Notes: generated by a model from the sequence alone, not told the origin. A DNA stretch of 32,000 bases from an uncultured Chloroflexia bacterium (GCA_963718915.1 CAVRAI010000009.1:210001-242000), one strand, 5' to 3'. Counted from the stretch's first letter, positions 4,833 to 25,824 are shown. Translations and numbers: made by a program.

Positions 4833-6048
4833 TTATCCCTCTCGCTCGGCGTCCAGGTTGAAATGCGTGCGCGCGGCCTGTGTCACCCGCGCCATCACTG
4901 TCTCCACCGGAAGATGCAGCTTCTCCGCCAGCGCGCGGCAGTCGTCGTACTCTGGCGTCACGGCGATCACCGCGCCATCCGCCGTCTTCAGCTTGACGCG
5001 CACCGGCCCCAGTGGCGTCTCGATCTCGCGCACCTCGCGTCCCGCCTTGAGCCGCTCGGCGTGGTGCATGCGCACGCCCAGCGTCGCACTCTCGCGCAGA
5101 ATCCGCGCCGCAAGCTCGCTGGCGTCCTCCGGGCGCGCGATGACCGTTAATAGCGTCGCGGGCCGATTCTTCTTCATTTGCAACGGAGTATAACTCACGT
5201 CAAGCGCGCCACTTGCCAGCAGGCGCTCCATCAGCCAGCCAAGCGCCTCGCCGGTCATGTTGTCGATGTTGGCCTCGATGACCATCACCTCGTCGCGCTC
5301 GAAGCCTGCCTCGGCCCGCTGCCACTGCTTCTGGCGCGGTCCCAAGCACGACGCGGAGGCAGTTGGCCCACGGCAGTTTGCGCGCGCCGAATCCGTAGCC
5401 GACGGCGCTGAGCCGCATCGCCGGGCGCTCGAAGCGGGCGAGCGCGGCCACCAGCGCGGCTCCCGTTGGCGTAACAAGCTCCCCCTCTATTGGGACGGAC
5501 CGCCAGACGGCATCTGTTCCCTTGAGCAACTCGAGGGTGGCGGGCGCGGGTACGGGTAACGCGCCATGCGCCGAACGCACCCGCCCCGACGTCAGCGGCA
5601 ACTCTGAGCAGTAGACCTCCGCGACATCGAGCAGGTCCAGGGCAAGCGCCGCGCCGACGATGTCCACTATCGAGTCCACCGCGCCGACCTCGTGAAAGGT
5701 GACCTCATCGGGCGTTGCGCCGTGGATGATGGCCTCCGCCTGCGCCAACCGCTGGAAGATCGCCAGCGCGCGCTCGTGCGCCCGTGCTGGGAGCGACGCG
5801 GCGTCCAGCATTGCGGTGATGTCGGCCAGCCGCCGATGCGCGTGTGGCGTCTGCTCGTCCAGCCGGACGTGGAGCCGCGTGCCGCTGATACCATGCTCGG
5901 TAACGGACTCCGCCTCCAGGGTGTAGCCCACGAGCGGCAGCGTTGTCAGCGCGTCTCGCAACTGCGCGAGATCGAGGCTCGCGTCGAGCAGCGCGCCGAG
6001 CAGCATATCGCCGCTGATGCCAGAGAAGCAATCCAGCCAGAGCAGCAT
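4833..6048 (-). CDS. larC: LarC-family nickel insertion protein (DUF111) with an apparent +1 frame break near 5305-5325
   Basis: The N-terminal part MLLWLDCFSGISGDM...GYGFGARKLPWANCLRVVLG is in one frame (stop at 5200). The C-terminal part DEVMVIEANIDNMTGEALGWLMERLLASGALDVSYTPLQMKKNRPATLLTVI is in the +1 frame (stop at 4833). Total length is 1216 nt (3n+1). The ATG at 6048 is preceded by AGGAGA. Confidence 0.8.
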
Positions 6049-6124
6049 GGGCGGGTCTCCTATTCGTGGGCTGTAGCGAAAGCGAAGGGCAGTGTGCTCT
6101 TTACGACGGACAGCCACGGCGGCT

Positions 6125-19753: not shown

Positions 19754-20119
19754 GGGGATGTCGGGTTTCGACAGGCAGGAGAGGTGATCGTTTGCAGGCC
19801 GAGGTGCCGGTACACACATCTCGTAAAACAACCGGCAAAACTATGACTGCCGACAAGCAGCCTTCTCTCGCTCTCGCCGCCTAAAAACGGTCGAAGCGCA
19901 TCCGTCCGACTTGCGTCTCATGGGCCGGGTACGGGTGTAACACAATGAGGCTGGGTAGCGCGGACACCCGCTAAGCGCTGCCAAGAGCCAGTGGGCAGGT
20001 GTCGCTGAACCCCGTCGGTGGGGGTCAGTGATGCGTCATCAAAACGCCGGATAAGCCTGTAGCATATCGCTCATCGCGCTTGTTTGGACGGGGAGTTCGA
20101 CTCTCCCCCATCTCCACCA
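19754..20119 (+). ncRNA. ssrA: transfer-messenger RNA (tmRNA, SsrA)
   Basis: The 5' end GGGGATGTCGGGTTTCGACAGG pairs with the 3' end ...CATCTCCACCA, including the G3:U pair. A T-arm-like GGAGTTCGACTCTCC is present. The internal tag ORF GCC GAC AAG CAG CCT TCT CTC GCT CTC GCC GCC TAA (19849..19884) encodes ADKQPSLALAA. Confidence 0.93.
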
Positions 20120-20181: not shown

Positions 20182-21211
20182 CCTAAAGGCTGTACACAAA
20201 GGCTTTTTTCAGGGTTCACGCCACTCGGCGATAGTGGAAGGCTGGGTGGTTCTGCTCGCGTGCCAGGCGTTTGAGCATCAGACGCAGCATGCTCAGGTAT
20301 ACCCACGTCTCACTGGTGGAGGGCAGGAATTCATAATCCTTGCTCATCCGCCGGTTACGCCCGATCCAGGCAAAGGTCCGCTCCACTACCCAGCGACGCG
20401 GCAGGAGCTGGAAACCGGGAAGCCGAACGGGCGGCTCCTGGTCGGCCCGCAGCCACTGGCCGCGTCCCCCGGGCCGCGCCACCACCTGTAAGCGCCAGCC
20501 GAACGTCTCCCACACCCAGGTCTGCAACGGCCCGTTGTAGGCGCTATCCGCCCAGATCAGGTTCAGGCGCGGTAGGGTGGACTGGAGTTGGTGCAGCAGC
20601 CAGGGGGCGCCAGCGCGATCCGGGATATCGGCCGGATGCACGATGACTCCGAGCGCCAGGCCGAGGGTATCGACCAGCAGATAGCGTTTGCGGCCTGAGA
20701 GTTTCTTACCTCCATCATAGCCGTGTGGGCCACCGCGCTCGCTCGTCTTGACCGACTGGCTATCGAGAATGGCGGCGCTCGGCGTTGGCTCGCGACCTCC
20801 CCGCTGCCGCACCCGTTCGCGCAGCGTCGTGTGGATCTGCTTCCAAGTTCCGCTGAGGCGCCAGCGGCGGAAATAAGCATAGACCGTAGACCACGGGCCG
20901 TAACTGCGAGGCAGCATACGCCACTGGCAGCCACTGCGCGGAACATAGAAGATCCCGTCGAGGATGACCCGCAGATTCACGGAGCGTGGCCGCCCACCCA
21001 GCTTGGCCGACGGCAATAATGGCGCGAGAATCGCCCACTCCCGGTCGCTGCGTTCTGCGGGATAGGTGGCTGAGACTGGGGAGGCTCTCTCAGGCATACT
21101 CCGCCTCCTTGCGCTGGATTGACCGTTGATCCTTCCTACCTTACCGCGCTTCCCGCGATGTGACGAACAGCGCTCCTGCCAGAGCTAGAGCCTTTGTGTA
21201 CCGCCTTTAGG
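20182..21211 (-). mobile_element. IS5-family insertion sequence (about 1030 bp) with 22-bp terminal inverted repeats
   Basis: The left IR CCTAAAGGCTGTACACAAAGGC (20182-20203) matches the reverse complement of 21190-21211 (CCTAAAGGCGGTACACAAAGGC) at 21/22 positions. The element encloses a single DDE transposase ORF. No unambiguous target-site duplication is visible. Confidence 0.8.
20216..21097 (-). CDS. IS5-family DDE transposase
   Basis: 293 aa. The N-terminal region is EWAILAPLLP...GRPR...ILDGIFYVPRSGCQWRMLP...YAYFRRWRLSGTW, followed by DSQSVKT...KRYLLVDTLGLALGVIVHPADIPDRAGA...IWADSAYNG...RWVVERTFAWIGRNRRMSKDYE. Confidence 0.9.
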   Translation of the reverse strand: MPERASPVSATYPAERSDREWAILAPLLPSAKLGGRPRSVNLRVILDGIFYVPRSGCQWRMLPRSYGPWSTVYAYFRRWRLSGTWKQIHTTLRERVRQRGGREPTPSAAILDSQSVKTSERGGPHGYDGGKKLSGRKRYLLVDTLGLALGVIVHPADIPDRAGAPWLLHQLQSTLPRLNLIWADSAYNGPLQTWVWETFGWRLQVVARPGGRGQWLRADQEPPVRLPGFQLLPRRWVVERTFAWIGRNRRMSKDYEFLPSTSETWVYLSMLRLMLKRLAREQNHPAFHYRRVA

Positions 21212-21213
21212 CC

Positions 21214-21372
21214 GTGGAAGCCGATAACGCCGAATTACGCCACTACCTCGCACGGTTAGGGCGTCGGTCTCGTTGCTTCACCCGCTCCCTTCACCCGCTC
21301 CCTTCAGGCGCTGCCAGGCGCTGCGCGATGCCGTCAAACTCTTCGTCTATGCCTGGAATCGCCGCCAACTCT
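21214..21372 (+). pseudogene. probable C-terminal fragment of an IS1-family-like transposase (frame-broken)
   Basis: EADNAELRHYLARLGRRSRCFTRS is in one frame and ALRDAVKLFVYAWNRRQL in another. Together they resemble the conserved ...LR..LARL.R...CFS.S...L...KLF...N tail of IS1-type transposases. No upstream part is present. Confidence 0.35.
21277..21302. repeat. 13-bp direct tandem duplication (TTCACCCGCTCCC x2)
   Basis: The two copies at 21277-21289 and 21290-21302 are identical and lie inside the IS1-like fragment. Confidence 0.9.
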
Positions 21373-21374
21373 TT

Positions 21375-21422
21375 CGCCGTGTGCATCGCCGTGTGCATCG
21401 CCGTGTGCATCGCCGTGTGCAT
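21375..21422. repeat. 12-bp perfect tandem repeat CGCCGTGTGCAT x4
   Basis: Four identical head-to-tail copies are read directly from the sequence. In one frame they translate as AVCI x4. Confidence 0.9.
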
Positions 21423-21462
21423 CCCAAGTACTCATCCCACGTCTTTCACAATTCATCTACCC

Positions 21463-21714
21463 ATGACGTTAGCCACTCCCGTGCTGCTCGGTGATTTGAC
21501 GAGGGATACCTACGAACAATTGGAGTTATTCGCGTCTCCTCCTCCTTTGCCCGATGAGCAGCGACGGGTAATGGCGGCCACAGATATGATCAACGCGCGC
21601 TTCGGGCGCGACACGATCCAACTGGCGGCAAGTGGACTTGAACAGCCATGGGGCATGCGACAGGCGCATCGCTCACCCAGCTATACGACACGCTGGGAGG
21701 AGTTGGCGCGGGTC
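21463..21714 (+). pseudogene. C-terminal fragment (DUF4113 region) of a UmuC-like Y-family DNA polymerase
   Basis: VLLGDLTRDTYEQLELF...EQRRVMAATDMINARFGRDTIQLAASGLEQPWGMRQAHRSPSYTTRWEELARV matches the characteristic UmuC C-terminus. There is no N-terminal polymerase domain and no proper stop. Confidence 0.6.
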
Positions 21715-21911
21715 TGGGAGCAACACGCGCCCCCAGATGCAAGGACACGGCCTTTAGCTCGCGTCCGGCGCTGCGGAGGTGGCGGGCGCGTCTTCCACGG
21801 GGCTGGCGTGAAGCGAGGAGACGGTCAGCCCGTCGGGGAATGTACGAACACGCCGACCCGGCGCGCGGACGCCGTAGACGCCATACATCAGCGCCGCTAT
21901 TTTGCAGTTGG

Positions 21912-21940
21912 AGATGGGCTGCCGCAGAGACAGCCCATCT
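21912..21940 (-). terminator. hairpin downstream of the FKBP gene (possible terminator)
   Basis: A perfect 10-bp stem AGATGGGCTG / CAGCCCATCT with a 9-nt loop lies about 40 nt after the stop at 21978. There is no clear U-tract. Confidence 0.35.
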
Positions 21941-21977
21941 ATTACCTATCTTATGACGAGATGACGGGTTCCCATTG

Positions 21978-22358
21978 CTACCGCACGCCCAGCAGCTCCA
22001 CGTCGAAGATGAGCGTGGCGTTTGGGGGGATCACGCCGCCAGCGCCACTCGCACCGTAGCCCATAGTCGGCGGGATGATCAGCCGACGCTGTCCGCCGAC
22101 ACGCATACCTGAGACACCCTGATCCCAGCCCTGGATGACGCGCCCGCCGCCAAGCGGGAACCCGAACGGCTGGCCACGGTCGCGCGAGCTATCGAACTTC
22201 TGGCCTGTGGTGAGCCAGCCAGTGTAATGCACCGAGACGTTCTGGCCCGCCCGCGCCTCTGCGCCAGAGCCAACCACAACATCGATATACTGGAGGCCGC
22301 CCGGCAACTGACCCGGCGTTCCACTCACTGGCGGCGGCCCGCTATTTGGATTCGACAC
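21978..22358 (-). CDS. FKBP-type peptidyl-prolyl cis-trans isomerase
   Basis: 126 aa, VHYTGWLTTGQKFDSSRDRGQPFGFPLGGGRVIQGWDQGVSGMRVGGQRRLIIPPTMGYG...IPPNATLIFDVELLGV. The start is GTG. Confidence 0.92.
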   Translation of the reverse strand: MSNPNSGPPPVSGTPGQLPGGLQYIDVVVGSGAEARAGQNVSVHYTGWLTTGQKFDSSRDRGQPFGFPLGGGRVIQGWDQGVSGMRVGGQRRLIIPPTMGYGASGAGGVIPPNATLIFDVELLGVR

Positions 22359-22440: not shown

Positions 22441-23043
22441 CTACTCATCGCCGTCTACGTGCGGAGAACGCTGCTCCTCGTCGCCTTCCGCAGCCCATTC
22501 CGGCTCCGGCTCGACGCCCAGCGCATCCGCCAGGCGATTGTAATAGTTGAAGAAGCCGATGACCTCCACCGCTTCGAGGATAGCGGCATCGCTCCAGCCC
22601 GCAACACGCAGCGCCACGATGGCAGGCTCACCGCCCGCCTGTGGATCGCGCGTCACCTGGACGGCGAAATCGAGCAACATTCGTAGCGGCTGATCCAGGT
22701 CAGCCTGTCGGTAGTCATCCATCGCCACCTGCGATAGTCGCACATCGAGACCATCCGCCTCCAGCGCCGCGCGCAGATCGTCTCCGTGCGATTTCGTTCA
22801 ATAGTGGCAGCCATTCACGCGCGAAACTACCACCGCCAGCAGTTCGCGCGTCCAGCGGGGGAGCGCCCCCTCGCCCATCATCAGCGTCTGATAGAGCGCG
22901 ATGGAGGCGCGCAGCACGCGAGGATGAAGGCTCTGAATGCCCACAACATTGAAGACCTTGCCCGCCCGCTTGATGGCTGCGTCATACTCACGGCGCAACA
23001 TCCCATCCGATTCATCATATGGGACGGTATGGATATAGGGCAT
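22441..23043 (-). CDS. AhpD/carboxymuconolactone-decarboxylase-family peroxidase-related protein with in-frame TGA at 22798-22800 (candidate selenocysteine)
   Basis: Two same-frame ORFs are joined by one TGA: ...LLAVVVSRVNGCHY-TGA-TKSHGDDLRAALE...AVEVIGFFNYYNRLADALGV. The TGA sits where the second Cys of the family's CxxC...H motif is expected. The ATG at 23043 is preceded by GGGAAGGGAG. The product is 200 codons in total. Confidence 0.7.
22739..22790 (-). other. SECIS-like extended hairpin 8-59 nt downstream of the in-frame UGA
   Basis: The mRNA pairings are CGCAC/GUGCG (22786-22790 with 22739-22743), GAGAC/GUCUC (22780-22784 with 22747-22751) and AUC/GAU, plus U-G, G-C and C-G pairs and a GC-rich apical part. 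This was folded by eye only. Confidence 0.35.
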
Positions 23044-23379
23044 ACACACGCTCCCTTCCCGGTAAACCAGAACCAGGCACAACGAACTATCACCATTCTA
23101 TCTCCCTGGCCAAGAGCACGCCGCACGGCGATATACTACGCACGGCGATATACTAGATGTGGAGTGTGAGCGCTTCACATGGCATGGCATGGTATGGCAG
23201 GCGCTAAATCGCAGGTGGAGGTACTCATTCCACCTCCATCTAATTGCTGCACGCATGGACGTATGGTAAGCTGGGGCAGCGCGGGATAGCATACAATTAT
23301 CGTCTGGATGGCTGGCGATACCGAAAAGAACAGCGCGCATCGAGCACTCGGCGCGGCGAAGAGTGAGGAGGGGACGACG

Positions 23380-25824
23380 ATGAATCGGGGAGGCCGACAG
23401 GTGTCCGCGACGGAGCTGGAACGCCGGGCGCAGCAAATCAAGGAGGTCGTGCGCGCGAGCACCGCATTACGCGCCGATATGCCACCTGAAGCGATCTGCG
23501 CTCTGGTCGCCCAGACGATTCACGCCACCCTGGGATTCCGGGCAGCCGTTGTCAACCTCATCATTCCGGGGAATCGCTACTTCGCCATCGTCGCCACGGC
23601 CGGAATCTCCGACGCCGAACGCCAGCGGCTCCTCAACGATCCACCGCCAGTGGATCACATCATCTCACTGATGCGGCCGGACTTTCAGGTGAGCCACACC
23701 CGCTCGTATTTCATCGGCCACGAGCATAAGTACCTGCTCGAAGGCGCGGGCGGCATCACGCTGCTGACACCATCCGCCGTCGCCGCGCCGCGCAGCCCCA
23801 ACGCATGGCATCCCGATGATGTCTTCTTCGTCCCGCTGATCAGCGTTCGCGAGAACCGTCTGCTCGGTATCATCTCGCTGGATCTGCCAGAAGACGGCAA
23901 AATCCCTTCGTTTGACACGGTGGAAGTCATCGAGCTGCTCGCGAACCAGGCGGCAACCGCGCTCGACACCGCCAGGCTCTTTCAGGAGCGCGATCACGAG
24001 CGACAGGCGCTCCACCAGGGTTTGGAGGAATTGCTCGCCCATCTGGATCGCATGCGCCAGCGCGACTTAAGCTCGCGCGCGCACCTGCGCACCTCTGCGC
24101 TGACCCATGTCGCGGGGGCGCTCAACGATGTCTCCGAGACGCTGGGCAATGTGCTGGCAGATGTACGGGAAGCGGGGACGGTCGTTCAGCAACAGGCCAG
24201 CGAGATGCGCAACGCGGCGCTCCAACTGGTGAACAACGCCCAGCAACAGGCTGAGCAGATACAGACTGCCTCGCAGGTCATCCAGCGCTCCTCAGAGCAG
24301 ATGCATCAGATCGTCGCGAAGGCCGCAAGCTCCCGCGCCATCGCCGAGGAGGCCAACAGCATCTCGAACGACGGACGCGAAGCCGCCGAGCGCGCGGGCG
24401 AGGGCATGAGCGCGGTGCGCGAGATTACTCTGCAAGCCGCCCGGCGCATCAAGCGTCTCGGGGAGAGCAGCCAGGAAATCAGCAATGTCATCCAGCTCGT
24501 CTCGGAGTTCGCCAGCCAGACCCACCTGCTGGCTCTCAACGCGGCCATCGAGGCGGCCAACGCAGGCGAGCATGGCAGCGGGTTCGCCATCGTCGCGCGC
24601 GAGATTCGCAACCTTGCCCAGAATAGCAACGACGCCACCAAGCAGATTCACGCGCGCATCAAGGGCATCCAGAACGAGACGAATCAGGTGGCAGTCACCG
24701 TTGAATACGCGACACAACAGGTCGTACAGCTTTCTGATCTGGTCACCCGCAGCGGAACCGCGCTCCATGCCATCGATACCGTCATCCAGGAAATCATCAG
24801 TGAGATTGCCATGGTGCATCGCACGGCTGAGGAACAGGCAAGGGCCACGGCTACCGTCGCGGGCACGATGAACACCATCGCGGGCATCACCGGCGCCACC
24901 TGGGAAAGCGCCGAGAACATGCGCGCCTCGATGGACCAGTTGGCCGAACTGGCGGCTATTCTCCAGGCCAAGATCGAGATGTTCCGCCTGAACGAGCGCC
25001 TGCATGGTGGTCCCGCCAGCTCATCGACCAGTCTTCCGCTCTACTCGTCGGGCGTCTCGTCCGGCCTAACGCCCGGCAGAATCACCTCAACACCCGCCTC
25101 GTCGTTTCCTGCTGTGCCATTCCCAGCAACTTCTTCCGCGGGGACTCCTCTTCCGGCGACATCCTACCCTGCCAACCCGTTCGCTGGCGCGCCCGCCGCG
25201 GATCCATTCGCCACATCGTCGCCCAAAGCGAATGCGGCGCCTCCCGCGAACGGCACGGCTGACGGCGACATGACTCTGGAGGCGACTGTGCCGATGCCCG
25301 CGATTCAACCGTCGCCAATCTTCCCAACCAGCAGCAGCCCGCTCACGCCGATGCGTCTTGCCGCGCTCGACGACACCAATGGCGCTGCTCCGCCGCCAGA
25401 TGCGCAACCAGACATGCGACCAGACATGCAACCAGACATGCAACCAGACATGCAACCAGGCATGCCAGGTGCGGCGCCAGCGGAGACTCCAACCGAGGTT
25501 GCTATAGCGGATCAGCCGCCTGACGCCGCGCACGGTGGGACGCCGGAGATGTCGTCGGTGGCGTGGATGGAACAGCCTGCCCCAGAATCGACGGCTGAGG
25601 CGGCCCCAGAGACGACCCCGTTACGTGTCCTGGAGACGAGGCCGCTGCCCGCGCTCGAACCCACCGAGCAGGCTGCATCAGATGCCATGCCCGATGACGC
25701 CATGCCCGATGACGCCATGCCCGATGACGATATGCCCGATGTCGCACCAGAGCCAATGACAGAGCCAGATAGTTCGTCAGACGACGCTTCCACAGTGGAG
25801 CATGGCGCCGATCCCGCGCGATGA
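23380..25824 (+). CDS. soluble methyl-accepting chemotaxis protein with N-terminal GAF domain and long Pro/Ala/Ser/Asp-rich C-terminal tail
   Basis: The MCP signalling hairpin core is SEFASQTHLLALNAAIEAANAGEHGSGFAIVAREIRNLAQNS. A GAF-like N-terminal region is present (FVPLISVRENRLLGIISLDLPE...LLANQAATALDTARLF). No TM segment is evident. The ATG at 23380 follows GAGGAGG; the longest ORF begins at 23308. Confidence 0.88.
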   Translation: MNRGGRQVSATELERRAQQIKEVVRASTALRADMPPEAICALVAQTIHATLGFRAAVVNLIIPGNRYFAIVATAGISDAERQRLLNDPPPVDHIISLMRPDFQVSHTRSYFIGHEHKYLLEGAGGITLLTPSAVAAPRSPNAWHPDDVFFVPLISVRENRLLGIISLDLPEDGKIPSFDTVEVIELLANQAATALDTARLFQERDHERQALHQGLEELLAHLDRMRQRDLSSRAHLRTSALTHVAGALNDVSETLGNVLADVREAGTVVQQQASEMRNAALQLVNNAQQQAEQIQTASQVIQRSSEQMHQIVAKAASSRAIAEEANSISNDGREAAERAGEGMSAVREITLQAARRIKRLGESSQEISNVIQLVSEFASQTHLLALNAAIEAANAGEHGSGFAIVAREIRNLAQNSNDATKQIHARIKGIQNETNQVAVTVEYATQQVVQLSDLVTRSGTALHAIDTVIQEIISEIAMVHRTAEEQARATATVAGTMNTIAGITGATWESAENMRASMDQLAELAAILQAKIEMFRLNERLHGGPASSSTSLPLYSSGVSSGLTPGRITSTPASSFPAVPFPATSSAGTPLPATSYPANPFAGAPAADPFATSSPKANAAPPANGTADGDMTLEATVPMPAIQPSPIFPTSSSPLTPMRLAALDDTNGAAPPPDAQPDMRPDMQPDMQPDMQPGMPGAAPAETPTEVAIADQPPDAAHGGTPEMSSVAWMEQPAPESTAEAAPETTPLRVLETRPLPALEPTEQAASDAMPDDAMPDDAMPDDDMPDVAPEPMTEPDSSSDDASTVEHGADPAR
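25396..25467 (+). repeat. 12-bp tandem repeat (CCAGACATGCAA and variants, about 6 copies) inside the MCP tail
   Basis: It encodes PDAQ-PDMR-PDMQ-PDMQ-PDMQ-PGMP. The three central copies are identical. Confidence 0.9.
25681..25742 (+). repeat. 15-bp tandem repeat (GATGACGCCATGCCC, about 4 copies) inside the MCP tail
   Basis: It encodes DAMP-DDAMP-DDAMP-DDDMP-D. Two copies are identical. Confidence 0.9.

Follow-up and report, generated by a model that had tools for sequence, protein, structure and literature searches.

An AhpD-like gene with an in-frame UGA in a Chloroflexota contig is a probable member of the TIGR01926/COG2128 selenoprotein family

Our analysis concerns a 32,000-nucleotide stretch of DNA from an uncultured Chloroflexia bacterium (GCA_963718915.1, CAVRAI010000009.1:210001-242000), which we refer to as the window and whose positions are counted from its first letter. 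Within it, the minus-strand gene at 23043..22441 very probably encodes an AhpD-like oxidoreductase of the TIGR01926/COG2128 type, 200 residues long, in which UGA codon 82 specifies selenocysteine (Sec). The insertion of Sec in the source organism, along with the physiological substrate of the enzyme, is something that we infer only from sequence comparison. The coding features on which the argument turns are the following.

23051..23057, minus strand: Shine-Dalgarno-like AAGGGAG, 8-14 nt upstream of ATG 23043
22441..23043, minus strand: complete CDS, 200 codons long, of the predicted AhpD-like (TIGR01926, peroxidase-related) selenoprotein; codon 82 would specify Sec, and the stop is the TAG at 22443..22441
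22843..22845, minus strand: codon of Glu67, which corresponds to the proton-relay Glu and precedes the first Cys of the redox motif by 12 residues
22801..22809, minus strand: codons of Cys79-His80-Tyr81, where Cys79 is the first (putatively resolving) Cys and Tyr81 the counterpart of Tyr50 in PA0269
22798..22800, minus strand: in-frame UGA, the predicted Sec codon (residue 82), in place of the second Cys of C-x-x-C
22786..22788, minus strand: codon of His86, the relay His, four residues past Sec and the counterpart of His137 in Mycobacterium tuberculosis AhpD

The frame that opens at ATG 23043 and runs to the TAG at 22441 contains a single internal stop, the TGA at 22800..22798. A first-pass annotation of the same DNA had described two minus-strand open reading frames, 22798..23082 and 22441..22743, that lie in one frame and are split by this TGA and 18 sense codons, and our coordinates agree; the downstream frame opens with the GTG at 22743. 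The local peptide around the TGA is ...VNGCHY-TGA-TKSHGDDL..., or, in its wider setting, ...RELLAVVVSRVNGCHY-[TGA]-TKSHGDDLRAALEADGLD..., and the read-through product, ...LLAVVVSRVNGCHY-[TGA]-TKSHGDDLRAALE..., has the pattern N-x-C-x-x-[TGA]-x-x-x-H. Judging from sequence conservation, the true start of the gene is ATG 23043, with AAGGGAG upstream and both kept in relatives; the Shine-Dalgarno region, GGAAGGGAGCG, is retained in the window gene and in the related loci L090, L002, L004, and L005. UGA is an ordinary stop codon in the window, where it ends 9 of the 21 genes, and recoding at codon 82 must therefore be local. A scan for other window ORFs broken by one TGA returned only two antisense artefacts. 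The neighboring genes encode an FKBP isomerase and a methyl-accepting chemotaxis protein, an order that is shared with locus L001.

The protein belongs to a recognizable family, and the TGA falls at the center of its redox motif. With the TGA modelled as Cys for the computation of profile scores, residues 10-182 matched the TIGR01926 "peroxidase-related enzyme" profile over positions 9-178 of 178 with 130.5 bits, against a cut-off of 81.8, while the Pfam CMD profile matched residues 41-93 with 48 bits and straddled the TGA. Because both matches cross the TGA, neither half of the gene is a complete domain, as had been claimed at the outset. The best matches among solved structures were PDB entries 6k40, 3c1l, 2pfx (E about 1e-24), 2oyo, and 2prr, with E values that ranged from 1e-24 to 3e-18 over residues 16-185. 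In the printed alignments, the second Cys of C-x-Y-C in 6k40 and 3c1l falls on the TGA column, and Cys-form relatives align there in the same way, which bears out the earlier assertion that the TGA stands for the second Cys of N-x-C-x-x-C-x-x-x-H. More broadly, the C-x-Y-C-x-x-S/A-H-G block is in the same register in the window protein and in the solved TIGR01926-type proteins 6k40 (annotated as Alkyl hydroperoxide reductase AhpD), 3c1l (Mlr4105), 2pfx, 2oyo, and 2prr. All five carry Cys where the window protein would carry Sec, and most come from structural genomics, with no substrate defined. The relay pattern E-x11-C-x-x-C-x3-H is present in the window protein as Glu67, Cys79, Sec82 (predicted), and His86, and Glu67, Tyr81, and His86 are all invariant in alignment A2.

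The relationship with AhpD itself would be one of mechanism rather than identity. M. tuberculosis AhpD and Pseudomonas aeruginosa PA0269 share with the window protein the CMD/AhpD helical core and the spacing of the relay, but both use Cys where the window protein is predicted to use Sec, and similarity to true AhpD is weak: the TIGR00777 profile scored 21.2 bits, far below its cut-off of 191.95. With the same relay, the window protein would appear to work like AhpD, yet by its profile scores it is not an AhpD equivalog. No AhpC/peroxiredoxin gene was found among the window ORFs scanned. A second candidate family was NF041238 (AhpD_rel_CFYUT), an "alkylhydroperoxidase-related (seleno)protein" that corresponds to "hypothetical protein 1" of the Sargasso Sea survey and that has in common with the window protein a C-[FH]-Y-U-T motif and a C-terminal AhpD-like domain. 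Membership was rejected, as the score of 68.2 bits falls short of the 175-bit cut-off and the match is confined to profile positions 215-341 of 357, the C-terminal third, with the N-terminal part absent.

If codon 82 specifies Sec, the organism should have the means to decode it. Neither selA, selB, selD, nor tRNA-Sec was found within the 32-kb window, where ARAGORN recovered only tmRNA, and the 20-kb Ktedonobacterales loci L002-L005 likewise contained no Sec machinery. Among metagenome loci, the best 80 of 351 relatives, tRNA-Sec, selB, or selA adjoins the orthologue in 19 of 80. Specifically, the gene adjoins SelB in 14 of the metagenome loci and SelA in 8, and in seven loci ARAGORN detected a tRNA-Sec(UCA) at a distance of 0.1-2 kb. 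Of the 41 loci whose downstream flank reaches 1 kb or more, 11 have SelB there. In locus L070, for example, the gene order is tRNA-Sec / AhpD-like(Sec) / SelB / SelA, and in L046 it is Aldedh / AhpD-like(Sec) / SelB / SelA. In addition, Ktedonobacter racemifer DSM 44963 has been recorded as positive for SelD, SelA, and SelB, with five selenoproteins (Peng et al. 2016; PMC5029168, Tables S1 and S2). The orthologous loci and the K. racemifer table suggest that the source genome, too, encodes the Sec machinery. We found no description in the literature of orthologues embedded in a sel gene cluster, including in Lin et al. 2015 (PMC5322559), where AhpD is not mentioned; a literature search for Ktedonobacter and selenium, together with the BSepDB supplements, returned nothing relevant.

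Bacterial decoding of Sec also calls for a signal in the mRNA, and we examined the region 3' of the UGA, in which the U of UGA is counted as +1. Two features overlap there.

22732..22796, minus strand: predicted SECIS-like extended hairpin, with stems formed by +10..+28 and +43..+63 (22791..22773 and 22758..22738)
22723..22797, minus strand: synonymously frozen stretch, the 25 codons after the UGA, defined by codon comparison among Ktedonobacterales relatives

The stronger evidence comes from the codons. We compared the window gene with L090, L002, L003, and L009 in 20-codon segments whose first codon lay 0 to +7 past the UGA. Of the codon pairs that encode the same amino acid, a fraction of 0.02 differed in codons +1..+25, the minimum for the entire gene, versus 0.26 gene-wide, and the sole synonymous variant in this stretch, at codon +12, lies within the apical loop of the predicted hairpin. 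Similarly, pS was 0-0.05 in the stretch past the UGA versus 0.25-0.50, and between the window and L003 there were 0 synonymous differences over 22 codons, with pS elsewhere of about 0.5. The near absence of synonymous change in the 25 codons past the UGA therefore implies an overlapping constraint at the level of RNA. From these comparisons we conclude that an RNA element is present 3' of the UGA.

The shape of that element is less firmly drawn, and the exact pairing of the hairpin should be read as a model. In addition to the stems listed above, the predicted structure has three outer base pairs (+5..+7 with +67..+69) and an apical region at +29..+42 (22772..22759) that is G-rich, begins with G, and spans up to 14 nt. 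Like bacterial SECIS elements of the E. coli fdhF type and the bSECISearch consensus, it is a stem-loop that follows the UGA directly, inside the coding sequence, and has apical G residues; it differs from them in being longer than usual and in having a large apical region. The apical loop begins about 25 nt past the UGA, which we take to be within the usual 16-37 nt of the bSECISearch model. The same long-hairpin fold is found in five to six relatives, including L090, L002, L003, L004, and L005, the last with a compatible A-U to G-U change.

The first-pass annotation had claimed a SECIS-like hairpin directly 3' of the UGA, and this claim stands in part: the hairpin forms and the synonymous sites beneath it are frozen, but neither covariation nor thermodynamics sets it apart. 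Folding of the 74-nt segment 22803..22730 gives a minimum free energy (MFE) of -29.8 kcal/mol, which is marginally beyond chance relative to dinucleotide shuffles (z = -2.17) but no better than when the peptide is recoded with synonymous codons (z = -0.81, p = 0.21). Family-wide, the synonymous-recoding null gave a mean z of 0.04, and a profile of 60-nt MFE z-scores across 85 loci had no dip past the UGA. In view of these results, we gave up the case for a hairpin of greater-than-chance stability. The covariation that was sought across orthologous TGA-containing loci fared no better. The long-hairpin consensus obtained with RNAalifold breaks in the more distant loci L011 and L012, with no real covariation; both fold long hairpins that use other pairings, which is why alignment-based covariation fails. 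Two helices can be followed family-wide, with 71-74% of cells paired in register versus 17-59% when the 3' partner is slid, but compensatory changes in them are rare, almost nonexistent. The scarcity of such changes, together with the break in L011 and L012, led us to drop the covariation claim as well. A search of the whole window against Rfam at the gathering threshold recovered only tmRNA and no SECIS family match, and at E <= 10 the region 22600-22900 gave only two chance snoRNA matches.

Relatives outside the window's clade mostly carry something different. Most have a short stem-loop, which is either CACGGAGA-GGA-UCUCCGUG at +13..+31 or, overlapping that position, GACCUC-CGKGCC-GAGGKC at +21..+40. 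In the window's clade a G-G mismatch has abolished the short hairpin, and the long hairpin takes its place. The family's short hairpin is also kept by L091, a Cys form with TGC at the column, so that this hairpin could represent a fossil SECIS or, in part, a by-product of coding for H-G-E-D-L-R. The window's clade also has a 4-residue insertion past the redox motif. We considered whether these four codons arose to build the long hairpin and rejected the idea, as the insertion is found too in the Cys form P0001 and in the short-hairpin loci L010 and L089.

Of the alternatives to Sec insertion, the one that survives best is that the UGA is decoded without Sec or acts in part as a stop: near-cognate decoding might insert Trp or Cys, a suppressor tRNA might act, or termination might be regulated, so that most of the product is an 81-residue peptide and some of it full-length protein. 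An argument can be made for it from the lack of Sec machinery in the 32-kb window, from the unremarkable stability of the hairpin against recodings, and from a Terriglobia MAG relative with a genuine TGG (Trp) at the column, which indicates that a residue other than Cys or Sec is tolerable there. Yet UGA serves as an ordinary stop elsewhere in this window, the position is that of the family's catalytic Cys, orthologues adjoin tRNA-Sec, selB, and selA, and K. racemifer, the type species of the order, has SelA, SelB, and SelD (PMC5029168). Furthermore, the 75-nt synonymously frozen stretch lies exactly 3' of the UGA, as a SelB-binding element predicts. We regard readthrough without Sec as quite improbable.

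Sec insertion at codon 82 presupposes that the half of the gene beyond it is translated, and comparison across the Ktedonobacterales clade (window, L002, L003, L009, L012, and L010) argues that this is so. Nei-Gojobori estimates of dN/dS were 0.10-0.26 downstream of the TGA versus 0.03-0.24 upstream, with dS of 0.2 to >1 and no frame disruptions. On this evidence, the downstream half is evidently translated, and purifying selection acts on it as it does on the upstream half. Translation could in principle proceed from a separate start, such that residues 1-81 and a second protein from GTG 22743 assemble as two polypeptides; both ORFs exist, and some annotations call both pieces. But the 18 codons that separate GTG 22743 from the TGA show conservation at the protein level, and since one of them encodes the invariant His86, ahead of this first possible downstream start, a separate C-terminal protein is ruled out as the functional form. 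Nor does a Shine-Dalgarno sequence precede GTG 22743, the downstream starts that have been called vary among relatives (P0007, P0015, P0024, P0027, and P0028), and the solved homologues are single chains. A split gene is accordingly a very remote prospect, and the full-length selenoprotein remains the preferred reading.

The TGA itself is widely shared. It was present in all 88 of the other related loci that span the column, a set made up of L002-L006, 80 metagenome loci, and L089, L090, and L093, whose contigs were reached via protein look-up. In a scan of one genome per species, the Ktedonobacterales MAGs L002-L005, at 88-92% identity, all had TGA, as did L006, an Anaerolineales MAG at 46% identity; L007, a 99% match, ends at a contig edge. 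The metagenome scan gave TGA in 80 of 80 loci, the best 80 of 351 relatives, at 41-89% identity. Other relatives, which are mostly more distant, have Cys at the column (P0001 at 76% identity, P0004 with codon TGC, and L008 at 27% identity) or Ser (P0012 and P0020-P0029). A database "W" at the Sec column can be a TGA read by a code-4 gene model, as in P0003; the supposition that every such "W" arises in this way proved false for P0011, where the codon is a genuine TGG.

With TGA in 88 of 88 spanning loci, the codon is therefore no accident, and the concern that it might be strain-specific gives way to a distribution common to Ktedonobacterales, Anaerolineales, and the 80 best of 351 metagenomic relatives. 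Public records do bear the marks of the stop codon, as had been expected of ordinary gene callers: fragments P0016, P0018, P0019, P0007, and P0015 stop or begin at the TGA, and many database fragments finish at ...CHY. Frameshifts also occur within the gene in L004 and L005, which are long-read MAG contigs, but we treat these as assembly errors, because neighboring genes are broken as well. That the TGA is a nonsense mutation or base-call error, an accident in one strain that left the gene dead or truncated at 81 residues, can be dismissed as having next to no chance of being right, for all that split database entries and frameshifted contigs might seem to favor it, given its recurrence across different phyla and samples, an intact downstream frame with the low dN/dS and the range of dS reported above, and identities of 41% to 99%, which mean that the related loci are not copies of one contaminant.

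Sec-containing proteins of this type have been known for some time. An AhpD-like protein (COG2128) with a CxxU motif was reported as a new selenoprotein family, with 27 sequences, from the Sargasso Sea in 2005 (PMC1088965). In the subsequent GOS survey, AhpD-like proteins were the fourth most abundant selenoprotein family, with 299 Sec sequences and 902 Cys homologues (PMC2398784), and by 2016 the family had been recorded in 16 sequenced organisms. COG2128 with CxxU was listed in 2005, 2008, and 2022, and "AhpD-like protein, TIGR01926, CxxU" was tabulated in reviews of 2022 and 2026. The statement in the first-pass annotation that AhpD-like families include Sec members was thus correct, as COG2128/TIGR01926 CxxU is a catalogued selenoprotein family. 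The window gene has the same profile, the same CxxU, a 3' hairpin, and Cys homologues in common with these proteins (COG2128 / YciW, TIGR01926; "AhpD-like 1" of the Sargasso Sea and GOS surveys). It is a straightforward member of a family catalogued since 2005, and it opens no new question. There are differences, however: known members come from marine plankton or from Clostridia and Deltaproteobacteria, whereas the window member comes from soil-type Ktedonobacterales (Chloroflexota), and its clade is distinguished by the 4-residue insertion and by a long hairpin of about 60 nt where most relatives have a short one. Two aspects are modestly new, namely a soil Ktedonobacterales lineage with a long, replaced SECIS (putative) and the frequent embedding of orthologues in a sel gene cluster.

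The mechanism that we envisage borrows from known Sec decoding and from AhpD. As the ribosome nears the UGA, the mRNA immediately 3' of it would fold, in the Ktedonobacterales clade as a long hairpin from about +5 to +69, and this hairpin would recruit SelB-GTP with Sec-tRNA(Sec) so that Sec is inserted and translation does not terminate. In the finished protein, Glu67, Cys79, Tyr81, Sec82, and His86 would form a relay with the spacing of the AhpD proton relay, which consists of Glu118, Cys130, His132, Cys133, and His137 in M. tuberculosis AhpD and of Glu36, Cys48, Tyr50, Cys51, and His55 in PA0269 (PMC3141380). In the M. tuberculosis enzyme, the second Cys (Cys133) is exposed and forms a mixed disulfide with AhpC, and Cys130 is partly buried (PMC6626918). 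Since Cys133 is exposed and attacks AhpC, Sec82 in the window protein would take the place of the solvent-exposed, attacking Cys. The selenolate might then attack an oxidised partner, which could be a peroxiredoxin sulfenate or disulfide or another small oxidant, and Cys79 would resolve the intermediate to leave an intramolecular selenenyl-sulfide. A low-pKa selenolate would be expected to bring its largest kinetic gain at the attacking position.

A broader interpretation, which we consider doubtful, has two parts that are proposed jointly. Under the first, the protein would be an AhpD-like selenoprotein of aerobic soil that is tied to the Sec system itself, often within the arrangement selC - ahpD(Sec) - selB - selA, and that acts not in generic peroxide defence but either as a main reason that the machinery is retained or as a selenium-handling helper. 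Under the second, the Ktedonobacterales clade would have swapped the short SECIS hairpin for a different and much longer element, with about 75 nt synonymously frozen.

If true, the longer Ktedonobacterales element would imply lineage-specific co-evolution of SelB and SECIS. The comparison of relatives indicates that the putative SECIS hairpins of a single protein family can be replaced clade by clade. There is also value for annotation. Gene callers split or truncate this gene, and some pipelines print Trp for the TGA, as in P0003; recognition of the predicted Sec codon restores a full-length redox enzyme. More generally, the gene flags its Ktedonobacterales organism as a likely selenium user, and it adds a soil lineage of the Chloroflexota to a selenoprotein family that has been best known from marine metagenomes.

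Genes of the selenocysteine machinery lie beside orthologues of the AhpD-like selenoprotein gene in metagenomic DNA. Among the best 80 of 351 related loci, 19 have such genes adjoining the AhpD-like Sec gene, with tRNA-Sec directly upstream of it and/or selB-selA downstream in convergent orientation. SelB lies downstream in 11 of the 41 metagenomic loci whose downstream flank extends for at least 1 kb. The AhpD-like Sec gene and the sel genes form a tight selenoprotein/sel-gene cluster, for which we found no published description in the AhpD-like family.

Metagenomic loci with sel genes beside the AhpD-like Sec gene
L070:2132-5634, sel cluster with the AhpD-like Sec gene
L046:3054-7192, sel cluster with the AhpD-like Sec gene
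L014, L027, L030-L032, L036, L037, L039, L040, L042, further sel-adjacent loci
L048, L057, L062, L068, L071, L072, L077, remaining sel-adjacent loci

Other members of the family carry sense codons at the Sec column, the alignment position of the in-frame TGA. A 52%-identical relative from Terriglobia MAG GCA_020072965.1 (L092:10001-10606) has a genuine TGG (Trp; motif C-V-Y-W) at this column, and its hairpin 3' of the codon has decayed. A sister sequence, protein P0012, has Ser there. These two forms appear to have left TGA in a single step for a residue that is not Cys, and the motif is now CxxW or CxxS. A third relative (L091:1364-1912) has TGC (Cys; C-F-Y-C) and retains the short family hairpin, CACGGGGAGGAUCUCCGU, directly 3' of the Cys codon. 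Either this hairpin is a fossil SECIS left by a Sec-to-Cys change, or it is partly a by-product of H-G-E-D-L-R coding.

Upstream of the AhpD-like gene in the window, about 80-110 nt from its ATG, a 17-nt sequence is perfectly duplicated in tandem (23122-23155, two copies of CGCACGGCGATATACTA on the plus strand). The TAGTATATCGCCG box is single-copy in three relatives (L090, L002, and L005), and the duplicated unit may serve as an operator or a promoter element. Further upstream lies a chemotaxis protein with a long low-complexity C-terminal tail, which is made of 12-nt and 15-nt tandem repeats encoding (MQPD)n and (DAMPD)n.

Other features of the window
4833-5477, minus, LarC C-terminal piece (PF01969 profile positions 235-375)
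5200-6117, minus, LarC N-terminal piece (profile positions 1-235)
19754-20119, plus, tmRNA gene (ARAGORN; Rfam RF00023, 168 bits)
20216-21097, minus, IS4/IS5-family transposase (DUF4096 and DDE_Tnp_1)
23308-25824, plus, methyl-accepting chemotaxis protein
25404-25465 and 25684-25745, plus, tandem repeats in its tail

The tmRNA encodes the tag peptide ADKQPSLALAA. Between it and the FKBP gene, the transposase is adjoined by an ORF that has DUF4113 as its sole domain and contains a perfect 12-nt tandem repeat of 4.2 copies (21374-21423). Because neither a transposase nor a DUF4113 gene is listed at syntenic loci L001 and j0khGhHc, the joint region (20216-22059) may be an insertion. Elsewhere, the LarC nickel-insertion protein (4833-6117) is split into two overlapping ORFs that lie in different frames, offset by +1. 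A frameshift or assembly error could account for the split, as could a programmed frameshift like that of larC1/larC2 in Lactobacillus plantarum.

Probable artefacts affect several relatives. The AhpD-like gene is frameshifted in MAG contigs L004/L001 and L005 (MAGs CAVPDP01 and CAVQGK01), and the neighboring ABC-transporter genes are also fragmented in L001/L004. We infer that these frameshifts are assembly indels rather than biology, possibly originating in long-read sequencing; database protein P0025 is one of these artefacts. In the JGI-derived protein P0003 the Sec column reads Trp although the underlying DNA (L093:277-819) has TGA, which means that TGA was read as sense in the translation. 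At the protein level, Trp is also printed there in other JGI-sourced entries (P0005, P0006, P0008-P0010, and P0013). In entries like P0003, selenoproteins are masked by a false Trp.
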